Part shown: one piece after another, positions 3,450 through 39,707 of the stretch
How the letters are laid out: every line of letters starts with the position of its first letter
Numbering within the stretch: position 1 is the first letter of the stretch
Origin: a phage
DNA: 40,153 bases
Sequence record: OZ335957.1
Direction: 5' to 3' (one strand)
The notes under the pieces: model-generated
What the model was told of the DNA's origin: nothing
What the model saw: only the letters and a program-made list of their open reading frames with translations
The model's database searches: none
Translations under genes and position numbers: made by a program

Positions 3450-3704
3450 ATGGACACTATGAAACACTTAAGCACAATCACTAATCGCAATGAAGTATTC
3501 GTGAACACTAAAGGTTATGCGTGGATTCAGCTTAAAGAGATGAGAGGAGCGCGTCACCGTGTGGTAGTGCGCAAGGTATCAAGCAAGCAGTTCAGCAACT
3601 ACAGCGTCGATACTGTGCGTATAGACAACGAGACATACCTGATAGACTCGCAGATAACCGTGAGTACTACAGCGGGCGTCTCAGCTCCTTATTTCGCTAA
3701 CTGA
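3450..3704 (+). CDS. Hypothetical early protein (84 aa), first ORF after the early promoters
   Basis: ORF in early leader position; weak RBS; alternative start at 3459; no recognisable motif. Confidence 0.4.
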   Translation: MDTMKHLSTITNRNEVFVNTKGYAWIQLKEMRGARHRVVVRKVSSKQFSNYSVDTVRIDNETYLIDSQITVSTTAGVSAPYFAN

Positions 3705-3791
3705 GAGTGATTAACTACAGGTCGTTAGACTGATAGCGGCCTGACTGATAGTCACTAACATACACATAATTAACTTTGAGAGGATATAACT

Positions 3792-8136: not shown

Positions 8137-8159
8137 CCTAAACTATCACTATAGGATTA
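8137..8159 (+). promoter_or_regulatory. Phage RNAP promoter (phi1.1-like position), +1 G at 8154
   Basis: CCTAAACTATCACTATA GGATTA. Confidence 0.8.
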
Positions 8160-8200
8160 GACTCAAGGTCATGACTCAAAGTCGTGGCCTTCATGATTAA
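8158..8200 (+). promoter_or_regulatory. Conserved hairpin element, copy 1 (RNase III site-like, R1.1 position)
   Basis: TAGACTCAAGGTCAT..GTGGCCTTCATGATTA; stem AAGGTCA/TGGCCTT conserved in three copies (8158, 15524, 39611). Confidence 0.4.
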
Positions 8201-8232
8201 CCCTAAATAAACACTACTGGAGATTTAACCGT

Positions 8233-15355: not shown

Positions 15356-15520
15356 GTGTTAAAGAAACTTAAAGCTCGATATCACATGTTCATGTACAAA
15401 TGGTGGAGCGATGAAGCAACCTGCCTGTCGAACATTCTGGGAGACCAGCGGTTCAACTCTGAGGCATGGAAGAAAGCTAACCGGAAGTTCATGTATCACT
15501 TCTTGCGTACAGACTTCTAG
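15356..15520 (+). CDS. Hypothetical small protein (54 aa, GTG start)
   Basis: GGAGG 7 nt upstream of GTG; 3' part of ORF-track frame 15041..15520 lying downstream of primase stop. Confidence 0.3.
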   Translation: MLKKLKARYHMFMYKWWSDEATCLSNILGDQRFNSEAWKKANRKFMYHFLRTDF

Positions 15521-15523
15521 GTC

Positions 15524-15566
15524 TAGACTCAAGGTCATTCATAGCGAGTGGCCTTTATGATTAGAC
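15524..15566 (+). promoter_or_regulatory. Conserved hairpin element, copy 2 (RNase III site-like, R4.7 position)
   Basis: TAGACTCAAGGTCATTCATAGCGAGTGGCCTTTATGATTAGACT. Confidence 0.4.
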
Positions 15567-23688: not shown

Positions 23689-23711
23689 ACTAAACTATCA
23701 CTATAGGGAGA
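23689..23711 (+). promoter_or_regulatory. Phage RNAP promoter (phi10-like, best consensus match), +1 G at 23706
   Basis: ACTAAACTATCACTATA GGGAGA; immediately upstream of capsid gene. Confidence 0.85.
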
Positions 23712-23814: not shown

Positions 23815-24864
23815 ATGGCAAACGTTCCGGGTCAGAAAGTTGGTACAGACCAAGGTAAAGGCAAATCTGGTTCCGACGCTCTGGCGTTGTTCCTGAAGGT
23901 CTTTGCTGGTGAAGTCCTGACTGCATTCACTCGCCGCTCTGTAACCGCTGACAAGCATATTGTCCGTACCATTCAGAACGGTAAGTCTGCTCAGTTCCCG
24001 GTCATGGGTCGCACCTCTGGTGTGTATCTGGCTCCGGGTGAGCGACTGTCCGATAAGCGTAAAGGTATCAAACATACCGAGAAAGTGATTACCATTGATG
24101 GTCTGCTGACTGCCGATGTGATGATTTTCGACATTGAAGACGCGATGAACCACTATGACGTGGCTGGCGAGTACTCCAACCAGTTGGGCGAAGCTCTGGC
24201 TATCGCTGCCGATGGTGCGGTACTGGCTGAGATGGCTATTCTGTGTAACCTACCGGCTGCATCTGATGAAAACATCGCTGGTCTTGGCAAAGCGTCTGTG
24301 CTGGAAGTTGGTACTAAAGCCGACCTGAACACTCCGGCTAAGCTGGGTGAAGCAATCATCGGTCAACTGACCATTGCTCGTGCGAAGCTGACATCCAACT
24401 ACGTTCCTGCTGGCGACCGTTACTTCTACACCACGCCGGACAACTACTCTGCAATCCTCGCGGCTCTGATGCCGAACGCTGCTAACTATGCTGCGCTGAT
24501 TGACCCAGAGACTGGTAACATCCGTAACGTAATGGGCTTCGTGGTTGTTGAAGTTCCACACTTGACTCAGGGTGGTGCTGGGGAAACTCGTGGTGACGAT
24601 GGTATCACTATTGCGACTGGTCAGAAGCATGCCTTCCCAGCTACTGCTACTGGTGATGTTAAAGTTGCTCTGGACAACGTTGTGGGCCTGTTCTCTCACC
24701 GTTCTGCTGTAGGTACTGTTAAGCTGCGTGACTTGGCGCTGGAACGTGACCGTGACGTCGATGCTCAGGGCGACCTGATTGTTGGTAAGTACGCTATGGG
24801 TCACGGAGGTCTGCGTCCAGAAGCGGCAGGAGCACTGGTTTTCACAGCGGCGTCAGCGGGTTAA
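23815..24864 (+). CDS. 10A: Major capsid protein (T7 gp10A-like)
   Basis: 349 aa; KLALFLKVF.GEVLTAF, KSAQFPV.GRT, HTEKVITIDGLLTADV, AALMPNAANYAALIDPE, HRSAVGTVKLRDLALER, YAMGHGGLRPEAAG match T7 gp10A. Confidence 0.98.
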   Translation: MANVPGQKVGTDQGKGKSGSDALALFLKVFAGEVLTAFTRRSVTADKHIVRTIQNGKSAQFPVMGRTSGVYLAPGERLSDKRKGIKHTEKVITIDGLLTADVMIFDIEDAMNHYDVAGEYSNQLGEALAIAADGAVLAEMAILCNLPAASDENIAGLGKASVLEVGTKADLNTPAKLGEAIIGQLTIARAKLTSNYVPAGDRYFYTTPDNYSAILAALMPNAANYAALIDPETGNIRNVMGFVVVEVPHLTQGGAGETRGDDGITIATGQKHAFPATATGDVKVALDNVVGLFSHRSAVGTVKLRDLALERDRDVDAQGDLIVGKYAMGHGGLRPEAAGALVFTAASAG

Positions 24865-25127
24865 CGACCTTTAAGGCCCTCTCTACAGAGGGTCCTACCT
24901 TAGAGACGTATAGTTCTACGGTGGGGACCAGCTTGAAGGTTGACTTCCAGGAGCTTTCAGATGTGACCGATTGGTCGCTTCTTGAGGTGACTACGCCTGA
25001 TGGTGTTAGCTACTCCCGTAGAACCAACAGTCTCTACTTCAAGGCCACCTCTGGCGTGGAAGGTCTGGTGATTGTTGGGTATGACGGTTCGCCTGTGCGT
25101 TCCTTCAACGTATCTTTCACAAACTAA
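24837..25127 (+). other. 10B: Programmed -1 ribosomal frameshift site (G GTT TTC) and 94-codon extension giving a minor capsid protein (gp10B-like)
   Basis: Heptamer G GTT TTC in the 10A frame 7 codons before its stop; -1 frame open from 24843 to TAA at 25125-25127; 8-bp hairpin at 24875-24894. Confidence 0.6.
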
Positions 25128-25133
25128 TTGAAA

Positions 25134-25170
25134 CCCCTTGGGTGCCTTCGGGTGCTTGAGGGGTTTTTTG
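25134..25170 (+). terminator. Intrinsic terminator for phage RNAP (T7 Tphi-like)
   Basis: CCCCTTGGGTGCCTTCGGGTGCTTGAGGGG hairpin followed by TTTTTT; close to T7 Tphi (AACCCCTTGGGGCCTCTAAACGGGTCTTGAGGGGTTTTTTG). Confidence 0.9.
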
Positions 25171-25190
25171 CTTAATGATGAGGAGGGACT

Positions 25191-25291: not shown

Positions 25292-25858
25292 ATGCCTCAA
25301 TACATTCCACTGAATGCTAACGATGACTTAGACGCCATCAACGATATGTTAGCTGCTATCGGTGAACCAGCAGTCCTACAGCTTGACGAAGGTAACGCTG
25401 ACGTCTCGAACGCTCAACGTATCCTGCATCGTGTTAATCGTCAGGTCCAAGCTAAAGGCTGGAACTTTAACATCAACGAAGCTGCTGTCCTGACGCCTGA
25501 TGTCCAAGACAACAGGATTCGATTCCTGCAGTCTTACCTTCGGGTCATGACTGCTGGTGCTACCAGTTACTACAGCAACATGGGGGGCTATCTCTATGAC
25601 CTGTCCACTCAGTCCACGACCTTCACTGGACCAATTACAGTCGAACTGGTGGAGATGAAACCGTTCGCTGAGATGCCTGTAGTATTCCGTGACTACATCG
25701 TTACCAAGGCTAGCCGTGAGTTCAACGCTAAGTTCTTCGGTAGCCCAGAGTCTGAACTGTACCTTCGTGAGCAGGAAGCAGAACTCTACCAGCAGGTGAT
25801 GGAGTACGAGATGGACACTGGTCGCTACAACATGATGTCCGACATCGGGAGGGACTAA
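25292..25858 (+). CDS. 11: Tail tubular protein A (T7 gp11-like)
   Basis: 188 aa; position and size match gp11; RBS AAGGAG. Confidence 0.9.
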   Translation: MPQYIPLNANDDLDAINDMLAAIGEPAVLQLDEGNADVSNAQRILHRVNRQVQAKGWNFNINEAAVLTPDVQDNRIRFLQSYLRVMTAGATSYYSNMGGYLYDLSTQSTTFTGPITVELVEMKPFAEMPVVFRDYIVTKASREFNAKFFGSPESELYLREQEAELYQQVMEYEMDTGRYNMMSDIGRD

Positions 25859-26085
25859 TGGCTAGTCACAACCTGAAGATTCACCGCCAGCACTTTGGTC
25901 CGGTACAACTAGGTCTAAAGACAGCAGAGCTGAGACTTAACGACCGGGACTTTAAGGTTGGCGACTGGCTTATCCTGAATGAGTGGGACAACGGGTATAC
26001 TGGACAACAGGTAGCACGTAAGGTTGTCCACATTGCTGACGTTGGTGACATCGCTGAGGGATACGTCCTAATGAGTATGATTTAA
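25858..26085 (+). CDS. Hypothetical small protein (75 aa) between tail tube genes; ASCH/DUF3850-like fold suspected
   Basis: TAATG coupling to gp11; KTAELRLNDRDFKVGDWLILNEWD resembles DUF3850/ASCH-type motifs (from memory); T7 has no gene here. Confidence 0.6.
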   Translation: MASHNLKIHRQHFGPVQLGLKTAELRLNDRDFKVGDWLILNEWDNGYTGQQVARKVVHIADVGDIAEGYVLMSMI

Positions 26086-26094
26086 GGAGGGCCT

Positions 26095-28452
26095 ATGCCA
26101 CTAATTACTCAATCAATCAAGAACCTTAAAGGTGGTATTAGCCAGCAGCCAGACATACTGAGGTTCTCAGACCAAGGCGAGGCACAGGTTAACTGCTGGT
26201 CATCCGAGAGTGATGGCCTCCAGAAGCGCCCACCTACAGTCTTCAAGAGACGTCTTAACATCGACGTTGGGAGTAACCCTAAGTTCCACCTGATTAACCG
26301 TGACGAGCATGAGCAGTATTACATCGTGTTCAATGGGTCCAACATTCAGGTAGTGGACTTGAGTGGTAATCAATACTCAGTTTCCGGTGCGGTAGATTAC
26401 GTTAAGTCCTCCAACCCACGAGATGACATCCGTGTCGTTACCGTTGCAGACTATACGTTCATCGTGAACCGTAAGGTTGTCGTTAAAGGTGGAAGCGAGA
26501 AGTCACACTCTGGTTATAATCGTAAAGCACGTGCTTTAATTAACCTGCGTGGTGGACAGTATGGTCGCACCCTTAAGGTAGGAATCAACGGAGGAGTTAA
26601 GGTTTCGCATAAGTTGCCAGCAGGTAATGATGCCGAGAATGACCCTCCTAAGGTTGATGCTCAGGCTATCGGTGCAGCTCTAAGAGACCTTCTTGTTGCT
26701 GCTTACCCTACCTTCACGTTCGACCTTGGGTCTGGATTCCTGTTAATCACTGCCCCTTCAGGTACTGACATTAACTCAGTGGAGACGGAGGATGGATACG
26801 CTAACCAGCTAATCAGCCCAGTCCTCGACACGGTGCAAACAATCTCTAAGTTGCCTCTTGCAGCTCCAAATGGGTACATCATTAAGATTCAAGGTGAGAC
26901 CAACAGTAGCGCCGATGAATATTACGTGATGTATGACTCCAACACTAAGACGTGGAAGGAGACAGTAGAGCCGGGAGTTGTCACTGGGTTCGATAACACC
27001 ACAATGCCACACGCTCTGGTACGACAATCTGATGGCTCCTTTGAGTTCAAGGCTCTGGACTGGTCTAAGCGTGGTGCTGGTAATGATGACACAAACCCTA
27101 TGCCTAGCTTCGTGGATGCTACGATTAACGATGTGTTCTTCTACAGGAACAGGCTAGGGTTCTTGTCAGGCGAGAACGTAATCATGAGCCGTTCAGCCAG
27201 CTACTTTGCGTTCTTCCCTAAGAGTGTGGCGACACTGAGTGATGATGACCCTATTGATGTAGCTGTAAGTCACCCTCGAATCTCAATCCTTAAGTATGCC
27301 GTTCCGTTTAGCGAGCAGCTACTACTTTGGTCGGATGAGGTTCAGTTCGTGATGACAAGCTCTGGTGTCCTTACCTCGAAGTCTATCCAGCTTGATGTAG
27401 GCTCAGAGTTTGCCTTAGGAGATAATGCCCGACCGTTCGCTGTAGGACGCTCAGTCTTCTTCTCAGCGCCTCGTGGGTCATTCACCAGCATTAAGCGATA
27501 CTTCGCTGTAGCAGATGTGTCTGACGTGAAGGATGCCGATGATACCACAGGCCACGTACTGTCCTATATTCCTAACGGGGTGTTTGATATTCAAGGTACA
27601 GGGACTGAGAACTACATCTGCGTCAACTCTACAGGTGCATACAACCGAATCTACCTCTACAAGTTCTTGTTTAAGGACGGAGTACAGCTTCAAGCCTCTT
27701 GGTCTCACTGGGAGTTCCCTAAAGCTGATAAGATTCTGGCGTCTGCGTCGATTGGCTCTACCATGTTCATTGTTCGTCAGCACCAAGGCGGCGTGGACCT
27801 TGAGCACCTTAAGTTCATCAAGGAGGCAACTGACTTTCCGTCAGAGCCGTATAGACTCCACGTTGACTCCAAGGTGTCTATGGTCATCCCAATTGGCTCG
27901 TTTAATGCTGACACATATAAGACTACGGTTGACATTGGTGCTGCTTATGGTGGTAATGCTCCGTCTCCCGGTCGGTACTATCTGATTGACAGTCAGGGTG
28001 CTTATTTGGACCTTGGGGACTTGACCAGTATCTCTACTGTGATTACCCTCAACGGCGATTGGTCAGGACGTACAGTGTTCATCGGGCGGTCCTATCTGAT
28101 GTCCTACAAGTTCTCACGGTTCCTGATTAAGATTGAAGATGATAGTGGCACTCAGTCTGAAGACACTGGTCGTCTACAGCTTCGTCGGGCTTGGGTCAAC
28201 TACAAGGACACTGGCGCTCTGAGGCTCATTGTCAGAAACGGTGAGCGAGAGTTCGTTAACACCTTTAATGGGTACACCCTTGGTCAGCAAACCATAGGGA
28301 CTACTAACATTGGTGACGGGCAGTATCGCTTCGCTATGAATGGTAACGCATTAACCACGAGTCTAACCTTAGAGTCCGACTATCCTACCCCAGTGTCAAT
28401 CGTTGGATGTGGCTGGGAGGCGTCATACGCTAAGAAAGCTCGTTCCGTCTAA
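26095..28452 (+). CDS. 12: Tail tubular protein B (T7 gp12-like)
   Basis: 785 aa; MPLITQSIKNLKGGISQQPDILR start typical of gp12; position. Confidence 0.95.
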   Translation: MPLITQSIKNLKGGISQQPDILRFSDQGEAQVNCWSSESDGLQKRPPTVFKRRLNIDVGSNPKFHLINRDEHEQYYIVFNGSNIQVVDLSGNQYSVSGAVDYVKSSNPRDDIRVVTVADYTFIVNRKVVVKGGSEKSHSGYNRKARALINLRGGQYGRTLKVGINGGVKVSHKLPAGNDAENDPPKVDAQAIGAALRDLLVAAYPTFTFDLGSGFLLITAPSGTDINSVETEDGYANQLISPVLDTVQTISKLPLAAPNGYIIKIQGETNSSADEYYVMYDSNTKTWKETVEPGVVTGFDNTTMPHALVRQSDGSFEFKALDWSKRGAGNDDTNPMPSFVDATINDVFFYRNRLGFLSGENVIMSRSASYFAFFPKSVATLSDDDPIDVAVSHPRISILKYAVPFSEQLLLWSDEVQFVMTSSGVLTSKSIQLDVGSEFALGDNARPFAVGRSVFFSAPRGSFTSIKRYFAVADVSDVKDADDTTGHVLSYIPNGVFDIQGTGTENYICVNSTGAYNRIYLYKFLFKDGVQLQASWSHWEFPKADKILASASIGSTMFIVRQHQGGVDLEHLKFIKEATDFPSEPYRLHVDSKVSMVIPIGSFNADTYKTTVDIGAAYGGNAPSPGRYYLIDSQGAYLDLGDLTSISTVITLNGDWSGRTVFIGRSYLMSYKFSRFLIKIEDDSGTQSEDTGRLQLRRAWVNYKDTGALRLIVRNGEREFVNTFNGYTLGQQTIGTTNIGDGQYRFAMNGNALTTSLTLESDYPTPVSIVGCGWEASYAKKARSV

Positions 28453-28476: not shown

Positions 28477-28499
28477 CCTTAACTATCACTATAGGGACT
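28477..28499 (+). promoter_or_regulatory. Phage RNAP promoter (phi13-like), +1 G at 28494, bracketed by an 11-bp perfect inverted repeat
   Basis: CCTTAACTATCACTATA GGGACT; AGGGCCTATAG (28461-28471) / CTATAGGCCCT (28497-28507). Confidence 0.8.
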
Positions 28500-35822: not shown

Positions 35823-38800
35823 ATGTCCACGATTACACAATTCCCTTCAGGAAACACTCAGTACAGGATTGAGTTCGACTACCTAGCCAGAACGTTTGTT
35901 GTTGTTACGCTGGTGAATAACTCTAACCCTACCCTGAACCGTGTACTGGAAGTTGGTCGAGATTATCGATTCCTTAATCCAACGATGATTGAGATGTTGG
36001 TTGACCAATCAGGTTTCGACATCGTTCGCATTCACCGTCAGACTGGAACTGACTTAGTGGTAGACTTCAGGAATGGCTCAGTGTTGACGGCTAGTGACCT
36101 GACAAATTCAGAGCTTCAGGCTATCCATATTGCAGAAGAAGGTCGAGACCAAACGGTTGACTTAGCGAAGGAATATGCCGATGCTGCTGGTAGCTCTGCT
36201 GGCAACGCTAAGGATAGCGAGGACGAAGCACGCCGAATCGCTGAGAGTATCAGGGAAGCTGGTCTAATTGGCTATATGACCCGTCGCTCCTTCGAGAAAG
36301 GCTACAACGTTACAACATGGAGCGAGGTCCTGCTATGGGAAGAGGATGGTGATTATTACCGCTGGGATGGTACGCTTCCAAAGAACGTTCCTGCTGGTTC
36401 AACTCCTGAAACTTCCGGTGGGATTGGATTAGGTGCGTGGGTTAGTGTTGGTGATGCTGCTTTAAGAAGTCAGATTTCAAACCCGGAAGGGGCAATACTC
36501 TACCCTGAATTACATAGAGCACGCTGGCTTGATGAAAATGATGTTCGTGGTTGGGGTGCTAAAGGGGATGGTGTCACTGATGATACAGCAGCGTTAACGA
36601 GCGCATTAAACGACATACCGGTTGGACAAAAGATTAATGGCAATGGGAAGACATATAAGGTCACATCCCTGCCTGACATTAGTCGCTTCATCAACACTCG
36701 TTTCGTTTATGAGCGCATTCCCGGACAACCTCTTTATTATGCCTCTGAAGAATTTGTTCAGGGTGAGTTGTTCAAAATAACGGACACCCCTTATTACAAT
36801 GCGTGGCCTCAGGATAAAGCGTTCGTATATGATAATGTGATATATGCACCTTACATGGGTAGCGATCGTCATGGTGTTAGTCGTCTGCATGTGTCATGGG
36901 TTAAGTCTGGTGATGATGGTCAAACATGGTCTACTCCAGAGTGGCTAACTGATCTGCATCCAGATTACCCTACAGTGAACTATCACTGTATGAGTATGGG
37001 TGTATGTCGCAACCGTCTGTTTGCCATGATTGAAACACGTACTTTAGCCAATAACGCATTAACCAATTGTGCATTGTGGGATCGCCCCATGTCTCGTAGC
37101 CTGCATCTTACTGGTGGTATCACTAAAGCTGCAAATCAGCGATATGCAACAATACATGTACCAGACCACGGACTATTCGTGGGTGATTTTGTTAACTTCT
37201 CTAATTCTGCGGTAACAGGTGTATCCGGTGATATGACTGTTGCAACCGTAATAGATAAGGACAACTTCACGGTTCTTACACCCAACCAGCAGACTTCAGA
37301 TTTGAATAACGCTGGAAAGAATTGGCACATGGGTACTTCTTTCCATAAGTCTCCATGGCGTAAGACAGACCTTGGTCTAATCCCTCGTGTCACAGAGGTG
37401 CATAGCTTTGCTACTATTGATAACAATGGCTTTGTTATGGGCTATCATCAAGGCGATGTAGCTCCACGCGAAGTTGGGCTTTTCTACTTCCCTGATGCTT
37501 TCAATAGCCCATCTAGTTATGTTCGTCGTCAGATACCATCTGAGTATGAACCAGATGCGTCAGAGCCGTGCATCAAGTACTATGACGGTGTATTATACCT
37601 TATCACTCGTGGCACTCGTGGGGATAGACTAGGTAGCTCTTTGCATCGTAGTAGAGACATAGGTCAGACTTGGGAGTCACTGAGATTTCCACATAATGTT
37701 CATCATACTACATTACCTTTTGCTAAAGTAGGGGATGACCTTATTATGTTTGGTTCAGAACGTGCAGAAAATGAATGGGAAGCAGGTGCACCAGATGATA
37801 GGTACAAGGCATCTTATCCTCGCACCTTCTATGCACGCTTGAATGTAAACAATTGGAATGCAGATGATATTGAATGGGTTAACATCACTGACCAGATTTA
37901 TCAGGGCGGAATAGTTAACTCAGGTGTAGGTGTTGGTTCGGTAGTTGTGAAGGATAATTACATCTACTACATGTTTGGTGGAGAGGACCATTTTAACCCA
38001 TGGACATATGGAGATAACTCAGCGAGGGACCCATTCAAATCAGATGGTCATCCCTCAGATTTGTATTGCTACAAAATGAAGATTGGCCCAAGCAATCATG
38101 TTTCCCGTGATTTCAGGTATGGTGCTGTACCTAACAGAGCTGTTCCCGTGTTTTTTGATACGAATGGGATTCGCACTGTTCCTGCGCCAATGGAATTTAC
38201 AGGGGATTTGGGTTTAGGTCATGTGACCATTAGAGCCAGCACCAGTAGTAACATTCGCTCTGAAGTTTTAATGGAAGGTGAATATGGGTTTATCGGGAAA
38301 TCTATACCGACTGATAACCCGGCAGGGCAGCGCACCATATTTTGCGGGGGTGAAGGCACCAGTTCAACGACTGGCGCACAGATTACGCTTCATGGTGCAA
38401 ATAGCACCGACTCAAGGCGAATAGTTTACAATGGTGATGAGCATCTGTTCCAGACTGCTGACGTTAAGCCTTATCACGATAACGTCACTGCGCTTGGTGG
38501 ACCACGTAACCGTTTCACAACTGCATATCTCGGAAGCAACCCTATTGTTACTTCTAATGGGGAGAGGAAAACAGAGCCGGTAGTTTTTGATGATGCTTTC
38601 CTAGATGCCTGGGATGACGTTCACTACATCATGTATCAATGGTTAGACGCTGTTCAACTGAAAGGCAATGATGCTCGTATTCACTTCGGGGTTATTGCTC
38701 AGCAAATTCGTGATGTATTCATTGCACACGGTCTGATGGATGAAAACAGTACGAATTGTCGTTATGCAGTTCTGTGCTATGACAAGTATCCACGGATGAC

Positions 38801-39017
38801 TGATACGGTATTTTCGCACTATGAAATCATTGAACACACTGACGAGGAGGGTAATGTCACTACTACGGAAGAGCCTGTATTCACTGAGGTGGTTATCCAT
38901 GAAGAGGGTGAGGAGTGGGGTGTTCGGCCTGACGGAATTTTCTTTGCTGAAGCCGCTTATCAGAGAAGAAAACTGAAAAGAATCGAAGCCAGACTTTCTG
39001 CTCTTGAACAGAAGTAA
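35823..39017 (+). CDS. 17: Tailspike endosialidase (endo-N-acetylneuraminidase) with T7 gp17-like N-terminal adaptor and C-terminal intramolecular chaperone domain
   Basis: 1064 aa; N-terminus FDYLARTFVVVTL like T7 gp17; Asp boxes SGDDGQTW (36906-36929) and SRDIGQTW (37650-37673); C-terminal 153 aa after Ser911 with S74-type chaperone motifs. Confidence 0.93.
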   Translation: MSTITQFPSGNTQYRIEFDYLARTFVVVTLVNNSNPTLNRVLEVGRDYRFLNPTMIEMLVDQSGFDIVRIHRQTGTDLVVDFRNGSVLTASDLTNSELQAIHIAEEGRDQTVDLAKEYADAAGSSAGNAKDSEDEARRIAESIREAGLIGYMTRRSFEKGYNVTTWSEVLLWEEDGDYYRWDGTLPKNVPAGSTPETSGGIGLGAWVSVGDAALRSQISNPEGAILYPELHRARWLDENDVRGWGAKGDGVTDDTAALTSALNDIPVGQKINGNGKTYKVTSLPDISRFINTRFVYERIPGQPLYYASEEFVQGELFKITDTPYYNAWPQDKAFVYDNVIYAPYMGSDRHGVSRLHVSWVKSGDDGQTWSTPEWLTDLHPDYPTVNYHCMSMGVCRNRLFAMIETRTLANNALTNCALWDRPMSRSLHLTGGITKAANQRYATIHVPDHGLFVGDFVNFSNSAVTGVSGDMTVATVIDKDNFTVLTPNQQTSDLNNAGKNWHMGTSFHKSPWRKTDLGLIPRVTEVHSFATIDNNGFVMGYHQGDVAPREVGLFYFPDAFNSPSSYVRRQIPSEYEPDASEPCIKYYDGVLYLITRGTRGDRLGSSLHRSRDIGQTWESLRFPHNVHHTTLPFAKVGDDLIMFGSERAENEWEAGAPDDRYKASYPRTFYARLNVNNWNADDIEWVNITDQIYQGGIVNSGVGVGSVVVKDNYIYYMFGGEDHFNPWTYGDNSARDPFKSDGHPSDLYCYKMKIGPSNHVSRDFRYGAVPNRAVPVFFDTNGIRTVPAPMEFTGDLGLGHVTIRASTSSNIRSEVLMEGEYGFIGKSIPTDNPAGQRTIFCGGEGTSSTTGAQITLHGANSTDSRRIVYNGDEHLFQTADVKPYHDNVTALGGPRNRFTTAYLGSNPIVTSNGERKTEPVVFDDAFLDAWDDVHYIMYQWLDAVQLKGNDARIHFGVIAQQIRDVFIAHGLMDENSTNCRYAVLCYDKYPRMTDTVFSHYEIIEHTDEEGNVTTTEEPVFTEVVIHEEGEEWGVRPDGIFFAEAAYQRRKLKRIEARLSALEQK

Positions 39018-39151: not shown

Positions 39152-39346
39152 ATGATTGAGTTAGACTTCAAGAATGAGGTCCTTAAAGCCTCTCCTATAG
39201 TCGGGACCGCTGCGGCTGATGGTGCCAGTCGGTTCTTCTTCGGACTCACACTTAACGAATGGTTCTACGTTGCAGCTATCGCGTACACCGTTGTCCAGAT
39301 TGGTGTGCTAGTCTACAAAACGATTAAAGGAGGTGGTAAAACATGA
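39152..39346 (+). CDS. 17.5: Holin (T7 gp17.5-like)
   Basis: 64 aa; LNEWFYVAAIAYTVVQIG transmembrane segment nearly identical to T7 gp17.5. Confidence 0.85.
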   Translation: MIELDFKNEVLKASPIVGTAAADGASRFFFGLTLNEWFYVAAIAYTVVQIGVLVYKTIKGGGKT

Positions 39347-39606
39347 CGCAGATGGACTTAGAGAAGTTCCTCTTGATGCTAGATACTGAACGTGCTCGAC
39401 TCATGCTGCAAGACCTGCGGGATGACACTAAGCGTTCACCTCAGCTTTACAACGCCATTGAGAAGCTACTGGCTCGTCACAACTTCGTGCTAAGCAAGGT
39501 GTCTGTAGACGAGAAGACTCTGGCTGATATGGAGGCCCTGAACGCAGAGTACGATAAGGTTCTTTCAGCGACTGAGGATAATGACACAGGGTATGGTGTT
39601 CAATAA
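39343..39606 (+). CDS. 18: Terminase small subunit (T7 gp18-like)
   Basis: 87 aa; LLMLDTERARLMLQDL...RSPQLYNAIEKLLARH matches T7 gp18. Confidence 0.88.
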   Translation: MTQMDLEKFLLMLDTERARLMLQDLRDDTKRSPQLYNAIEKLLARHNFVLSKVSVDEKTLADMEALNAEYDKVLSATEDNDTGYGVQ

Positions 39607-39610
39607 GTGT

Positions 39611-39655
39611 TAGACTCAAGGTCATTACTATATGTAGTGGCCTTTATGGTTAACA
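39611..39655 (+). promoter_or_regulatory. Conserved hairpin element, copy 3 (RNase III site-like, R18.5 position)
   Basis: TAGACTCAAGGTCATTACTATATGTAGTGGCCTTTATGGTTAAC. Confidence 0.4.
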
Positions 39656-39707
39656 CTAACTAGTGGAGGAGACTCTACGTGAAATCTGATAAACCGGGAG
39701 GGCAACT

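Follow-up and report, generated by a model that had tools for sequence, protein, structure and literature searches.

Results

An ASCH-domain ORF between the two tail-tube genes

The window analyzed here is a stretch of phage DNA of 40,153 nucleotides (sequence record OZ335957.1). On its + strand, at 25858–26085, it carries a 75-aa ORF (translation MASHNLKIHRQHFGPVQLGLKTAELRLNDRDFKVGDWLILNEWDNGYTGQQVARKVVHIADVGDIAEGYVLMSMI) that encodes a minimal ASCH (PUA-like) protein and that begins on the stop codon of gp11, as the first-pass annotation had described. The ATG (25858–25860) and the gp11 TAA (25856–25858) have one base in common, giving a TAATG overlap. At the other end, the TAA of the ORF ends at 26085 and the ATG of gp12 lies at 26095; the intervening sequence (GGAGGGCCT) is 9 nt long, one less than the 10 bp originally reported. 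The Shine–Dalgarno sequence of gp12, GGAGG (26086–26090, + strand), directly follows the ORF stop and forms the 3′ edge of what we describe below as a cassette. Profile matches bear out the description of the flanking genes as a tail-tube pair: gp11 (25292–25858, + strand), the 188-aa tail tubular protein A or adaptor, matches Pfam Tube (4.6e-46) and is 100% identical to Vec13 gp41, and gp12 (26095–28452, + strand), the 785-aa tail tubular protein B or nozzle, matches Pfam Phage_nozzle (E = 0) over positions 1–793 of the 794-position profile. In T7, gene 11 (24229–24819) is followed by gene 12 (from 24843) after a spacer of 23 nt without an ORF, in agreement with the adjacency that had been claimed for that phage.

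The whole genome is present in the window, in circularly permuted form. An ORF of 587 aa (1–1764), with the size of a large terminase and the position of gene 19, begins at base 1, and a small gene-18-like ORF (39343–39606) lies at the far end. With Escherichia phage Vec13, the 1.3-kb stretch around the 75-aa ORF shares 98.3% identity, and with many other Kayfunavirus genomes 94–98%; the window is a K1F-like phage of that genus (Autographiviridae, Studiervirinae). Its 1064-aa tailspike (35823–39017) is a complete K1F-type endosialidase, with an End_beta_propel match at 1.6e-221 as well as N-terminal, beta-barrel, tail-spike, and S74 chaperone domains. We therefore take it to be a K1-capsule phage that, unlike K1F, has retained the DUF3850 gene.

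Two further features of the window were noted in passing. A 68-aa ORF with a GTG start (24921–25127, + strand), in the interval between gene 10 and the terminator-like hairpin described below, is read in the −1 frame relative to gene 10; this frame is open from 24789, so that the open stretch (24789–25127) runs over the final 25 codons of 10A, whose end is at 24864. Relatives' annotations call this ORF hypothetical, minor capsid, or major head protein, but it looks like a frameshift extension of the T7 10B type and not an independent gene. In addition, an element of about 50 nt, TTAGACTCAAGGTCAT...GTGGCCTT.ATG.TTAAC, is repeated at 8157–8209, just downstream of a phage promoter, and at 39610–39662, near the end of the window, with a third, partial copy of 21 nt at 15518–15538 (in common: TAGACTCAAGGTCAT).

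The gene is already known from deposited genomes, in which the same locus holds a "DUF3850 domain-containing" or "RNA-binding" protein. Vec13 gp42 (YP_009807365, "RNA-binding protein") is 98.7% identical to the ORF product and occupies the same slot with the same TAATG overlap, as does the 96% identical "DUF3850 domain-containing protein" of vB_EcoP_FFK3; LM33_P1 is another Kayfunavirus genome with the same gene between gp11 and gp12, and six listed records hold a protein 100% identical to the ORF product.

Family membership and fold

The first-pass annotation had likened the ORF product to DUF3850 and ASCH domains, and profile searches place it in both families. It matches Pfam DUF3850 (PF12961) with E = 1.9e-19 and 70.1 bits against a cut-off of 22.9, residues 4–73 aligning with positions 2–76 of the 77-position profile, and Pfam ASCH (PF04266) with 1.4e-5 and 26.2 bits against a cut-off of 21.2. 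The protein also matches PHROG 986 ("RNA-binding protein"; 2.8e-35), in which it covers positions 95–171 of 253, whereas a search of NCBIfam with it gave no match. The ASCH octapeptide GxKxxExR is present as G19-L-K21-T22-A-E24-L-R26 and is followed by N28-D29-R30, all within the ORF at 25858–26085. Close homologues are invariant at K21, T22, E24, R26, N28, D29, R30, G35, L40, E42, G49, H58, V70, and S73, and the K, E, R, D, and R of the motif are invariant even among 149 diverse representatives of clusters at 50% identity. The family as a whole is large, with 16,098 representatives of such clusters at E ≤ 1e-3 in a profile search.

By sequence, the PDB contains a single relative, 3IUW (1.2e-10 for a search with the sequence alone, 3.7e-19 for a profile search), which is also the sole solved DUF3850 structure. 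The fold of the ORF protein, a PUA-like beta-barrel, agrees with it, and a Foldseek TM of 0.88 backs the assignment. The AF2 model has its lowest confidence at residues 21–30, the motif loop, with a block mean pLDDT of 56. 3IUW is a structural-genomics entry of 83 aa from Enterococcus faecalis V583 (NP_814290, "activating signal cointegrator"); it is of Gram-positive origin, unlike the ORF protein, and supplies the fold and not the mechanism. Taken together, we regard it as practically certain that the ORF encodes a stand-alone minimal ASCH domain of the DUF3850 family.

Predicted expression from the gp11–gp12 transcript

The consensus of the phage RNA-polymerase promoter, CTAAACTATCACTATAGGRA, has 11 matches in the window, all on the + strand, with 0 expected by chance. 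The last one ahead of the ORF is the phi10 equivalent upstream of gene 10 (23690–23709, + strand), and the next lies upstream of gene 13 (28478–28497, + strand), with no match to CTAAACTATCACTATAGGRA between 23690 and 28478. In the gap between gene 10 and gp11, a terminator-like hairpin equivalent to Tphi (25145–25172, + strand) consists of a 7-bp stem followed by GTTTTTTGCT. The order is the same as in T7, where phi10, 10A, Tphi, 11, and 12 follow one another. The promoter-free interval and the Tphi-like hairpin together argue that gp11, the ORF, and gp12 lie on a common late read-through transcript, and on this layout the ORF is predicted to be expressed late, from the gp11–gp12 mRNA. A 56-aa ORF on the minus strand (25881–26051) was rejected as a shadow of the coding frame; the phage promoter matches are confined to the + strand.

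The Shine–Dalgarno sequence of the ORF, GGAGG (25848–25852, + strand), lies within the final Gly-Arg codons of gp11 (GGG AGG GAC), 5 nt before the ATG. These codons vary with what follows them. In every genome in which an ORF starts on the gp11 stop, be it the DUF3850 gene or, in K1F and the related locus L006, gp12 itself, the terminal codons of gp11 read GGG AG(G/A) GAC; where gp12 has its own Shine–Dalgarno sequence downstream (TAATAGGAGGTGATATG), they read GGT CGA GAC, and in the most divergent locus, L026, they read AGC CGA GAG. Such synonymous covariation indicates that initiation of translation at the overlapped ATG is selected for, and the ORF is probably translationally coupled to gp11. 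The comparison set 25847–25855 of the window against loci L002–L034; in its GGG AG(G/A) form, the Gly-Arg pair supplies an internal Shine–Dalgarno sequence by means of a rare Arg codon.

A real gene under selection

The coding sequence shows the constraint expected of a protein-coding gene. Among 15 distinct nucleotide alleles from related loci, the median dN/dS was 0.11 (89 allele pairs with dS > 0.05), as compared with 0.03 for gp11, and the most distant alleles are nearly saturated at synonymous sites. Alleles of 68–100% identity all encode 75 aa and keep the motif unchanged. Judged from these comparisons, purifying selection acts on the ORF. Its full-length Pfam match at 70 bits, this dN/dS, its own Shine–Dalgarno sequence, and its conservation at this site in deposited genomes, well over 150 in number, set it apart from a chance reading frame. 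The GC content equals that of the neighboring genes, and the composition is not anomalous.

An optional cassette with defined edges

The gene is not universal. Among IMG/VR relatives with a full gp11, it is found in 13 of 24. In GenBank, 218 records hold gp11 at ≥80% identity, and the ORF is found in 155 records at ≥80% and in up to 181 at ≥60% identity, a carriage of about 70–80% of Kayfunavirus-type genomes. The type phage K1F has gp11 and gp12 directly joined by TAATG, and the published gene tables of Dev2 and SH3–SH5 likewise have gp12 directly after gp11. K1F and L006 have gp11 and gp12 near-identical to those of the window (98–99%), yet the ORF is missing from both; taking exactly 237 nt out of the window, from one ATG to the next, gives L006. 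This cassette is bordered on both sides by the short repeat GGAGGG-CT-ATG. Dev2-type lineages have the same GGAGGTGATATG ahead of gp12 with or without the ORF. By its distribution, then, the ORF is optional and dispensable in Kayfunavirus. The first-pass annotation had called a gene of this kind within the tail operon unusual. This holds relative to T7 and to K1F, in both of which comparison of gene order confirmed that gp12 directly follows gp11, but not within the genus, where the gene is the majority state and already annotated.

The cassette does not look like a recent arrival. The slot is also filled by alleles of 85%, 75%, and 68% identity, and the identity of the ORF follows that of the gp12 allele (98%, ~75%, or ~69%), whereas gp11 stays at 94–98%. 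We rejected recent horizontal insertion on the basis of the normal composition and of the alleles of 68–85% identity in the slot of lineages with equally diverged gp12. The same observations suggest that the ORF is ancestral to much of the genus and was lost later, and in these sequence comparisons it has the look of a long-established occupant of the slot that was cleanly lost in several lineages, including K1F.

Three observations concern variants of the slot. Locus L025 (IMGVR_UViG_2700988881_000001, 3567–3791) holds a 74-aa DUF3850 variant of 45% identity that has in common with the ORF its opening 11 nt and, in the center, the block GDWLI..EWDNG.TG.QV.RKV.H, is without N28/D29/R30, and matches PF12961 with 26.6 bits; either the copy is decaying or it arose by mosaic replacement. 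The gene table of Enterobacter phage B1 (ORF40–ORF42) lists, after the 75-aa ORF and before a full-length gp12, an extra 158-aa hypothetical ORF (24,315–24,791; PMC12785254); in some phages the slot may contain additional cargo. In Enterobacter phage 03_vB_Eclo_IJM (L041, OP272492.1), an additional ORF suspected behind the gene was rejected as a product of a frameshift-ridden assembly; capsid, gp11, and gp12 are each split into several CDSs in this record, and its annotation around the ORF is unreliable.

Homologues in unrelated phages

A tblastn search found homologues in 561 phage records from unrelated groups, and in all cases examined in unrelated phages the gene lay in a non-structural accessory region. 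It is part of a small-ORF block in a Kagunavirus, lies among small, probably early ORFs near polynucleotide kinase in a T1-like phage, and directly follows replication gene A in a P2-like phage; in a P2/186-like Vibrio phage it belongs to the early operon, upstream of gene A. A Listeria siphophage has it flanked by DnaD and SSB, and in an Erwinia phage it adjoins NinX in the lambdoid nin region.

Many members of the family are longer than the domain. Flanking extensions of at least 40 residues occur in 110 of the 149 diverse representatives, and in 98 of these they are C-terminal only. For the C-terminal extension seen most often (68 of 149), the only matches are to PHROGs of unknown function; identifiable partners are DUF551 (11 of 149) and, in single cases, dATP/dGTP pyrophosphohydrolase and LexA/HTH domains. 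With nearly all partners of unknown function, we discarded fusions as a functional lead. A 2025 survey described ParB-CTPase-DUF3850 fusions that are prophage-enriched and paired with ParA, and in which DUF3850 stands in for the DNA-binding HTH (bioRxiv 10.1101/2025.10.10.680097 / PNAS 2025). These fusions, which are enriched in phages and prophages, share with the ORF protein the DUF3850 domain, but they are multidomain proteins that bind CTP via the ParB fold, whereas the ORF protein is the bare domain.

Discussion

Our analysis supports a model in which the 75-aa ORF is a genuine but dispensable accessory gene that encodes a non-structural minimal ASCH protein with a putative nucleic-acid or nucleotide ligand. 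We assign this explanation as a whole a probability of about 60%, although its parts differ in strength. A non-structural accessory role is very likely, whereas the proposed molecular activity, the binding of a nucleic acid or nucleotide, stands at roughly even odds. The product would be a soluble, cytoplasmic protein made late in infection and not part of the tail. Residues K21, E24, and R26 of the octapeptide, together with the DUF3850-specific N28-D29-R30 loop, would bind single-stranded nucleic acid or a (possibly modified) nucleoside or nucleotide, and the ligand held by K21/E24/R26/D29/R30 may be RNA, ssDNA, or a modified nucleotide. The benefit to the phage would depend on the host and be gained through host take-over or counter-defense, with no essential step involved.

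The label "RNA-binding" (PHROG 986, RefSeq) should not be read as evidence of the ligand, as it is inherited from the ASCH/PUA superfamily. ASCH ribonucleases of the ZmASCH type cleave single-stranded RNA in a metal-dependent manner. An ASCH fold is nonetheless no guarantee of RNA binding, because in vitro no binding of nucleic acids was seen with ASCH proteins of the YqfB type (PMC9599836). In the literature on DUF3850, phage ASCH domains, and Kayfunavirus ASCH, we found no functional study.

YqfB also provides the best alternative, which we nevertheless consider unlikely: that the ORF protein works, in the manner of YqfB, as a small hydrolase of modified nucleosides or nucleotides in their free form and thereby feeds or detoxifies the nucleotide pool in phage DNA synthesis. 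E. coli YqfB (PDB 1TE7, 9KYF), the nearest characterized fold, is a 103-aa ASCH N4-acetylcytidine amidohydrolase with catalytic Lys21, Thr24 (the nucleophile), Arg26, and Glu74 (PMC9599836). Its Lys21 and Arg26 align with the ORF protein, and in an hhalign comparison that aligned only YqfB residues 10–49, at a probability of 21%, K21, T22, and R26 were in register. However, the nucleophile Thr24 is replaced by Glu24, and the C-terminal helical region of YqfB, whose insert holds the acidic Glu74, has no counterpart in the 75-aa protein. With the catalytic triad not present, we rejected membership in the YqfB-type amidohydrolases; the ORF protein may act on a ligand class similar to that of YqfB.

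A second possibility, by analogy with host sensors and quite improbable in our estimate, is that the protein would serve as a counter-defense sponge or decoy. Its PUA-like pocket would capture a modified-nucleotide alarm, for example m6-dAMP from degraded Dam-methylated host DNA, or mask modified bases, and so blind PUA-like host sensors (Metis/PUA-Cal-HAD, type IV restriction). T7-like phages degrade host DNA, which counts in favor of this idea, and presence/absence polymorphism, location in accessory regions, and faster evolution than the neighboring genes make up the usual signature of anti-defense genes. Moreover, host PUA-like domains do sense m6-dAMP in Metis and PUA-Cal-HAD (10.1101/2025.11.05.686725; 10.64898/2026.01.15.699771). 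On the other hand, the counter-measures to PUA-Cal-HAD known so far are DNA mimics (10.64898/2026.01.15.699771), the DUF3850 family is abundant in temperate phages, and a search of the PADLOC defense HMMs gave only a marginal partial match (PDC-M07B; E = 0.007, 14 bits), which provides no link to known defense families. If true, the protein would be the first of its kind, a sponge against a methylome-derived signal, and this would account for the comings and goings of the gene between near-identical phages.

A role as tail-assembly factor or minor virion protein seems very improbable, even though the gene's position in the tail operon, its predicted late co-transcription, and its probable coupling to gp11 are what such a role would lead one to expect. 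The distribution of the gene decided us against it. The first-pass annotation had considered the gene non-structural, and it is indeed not a conserved virion component: T7, K1F, and 11 of the 24 close IMG/VR relatives are without the ORF, many of them with near-identical gp11, whereas a T7-like tail protein would be present wherever the gp11–gp12 tail is conserved. The nucleic-acid-type ASCH/PUA-like fold also speaks against a structural part, and a virion role is made unlikely by the homologues in unrelated sipho- and myoviruses, which sit in early, replication, or nin-type accessory regions. In phage B1, whose ORF40 is the same gene, mass spectrometry of eight excised gel bands of virions did not report the protein, although such band-based evidence is weak (PMC12785254); the mass-spectrometry study of SH3/SH4 concerned phages without the gene. 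It is hardly credible, finally, that the ORF is a decaying passenger or a spacer cistron whose translation matters and whose product does not: its repeated loss and the degenerate L025 copy would fit, but a dN/dS of 0.11 with dS near saturation, the constant length, and the invariant motif do not.

We therefore return to an accessory gene for a non-structural ASCH protein as the preferred reading. Small non-essential genes are interspersed among essential genes in T7-like phages. The ORF resembles them in being short, wedged among essential genes, joined by overlapping stop and start codons, and variable between relatives, although T7, unlike the window, has no such gene between genes 11 and 12. 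The finding is a routine one: the window is another isolate with the gene, in nothing of substance different from the deposited versions, and the existing annotation is confirmed as that of an optional accessory cassette and not a part of the tail. What our analysis adds is that the cassette has defined edges, that its gene is under purifying selection and is probably translationally coupled to gp11, and that its product is neither a YqfB-type enzyme nor a tail component.

The value of the ORF is thus that of a pointer to DUF3850, a very large family (>16,000 clusters at 50% identity) that is enriched in phages and prophages and has an invariant charged motif. Kayfunavirus offers natural near-isogenic pairs with and without the gene, such as the phage of the window and K1F, for cheap functional tests.
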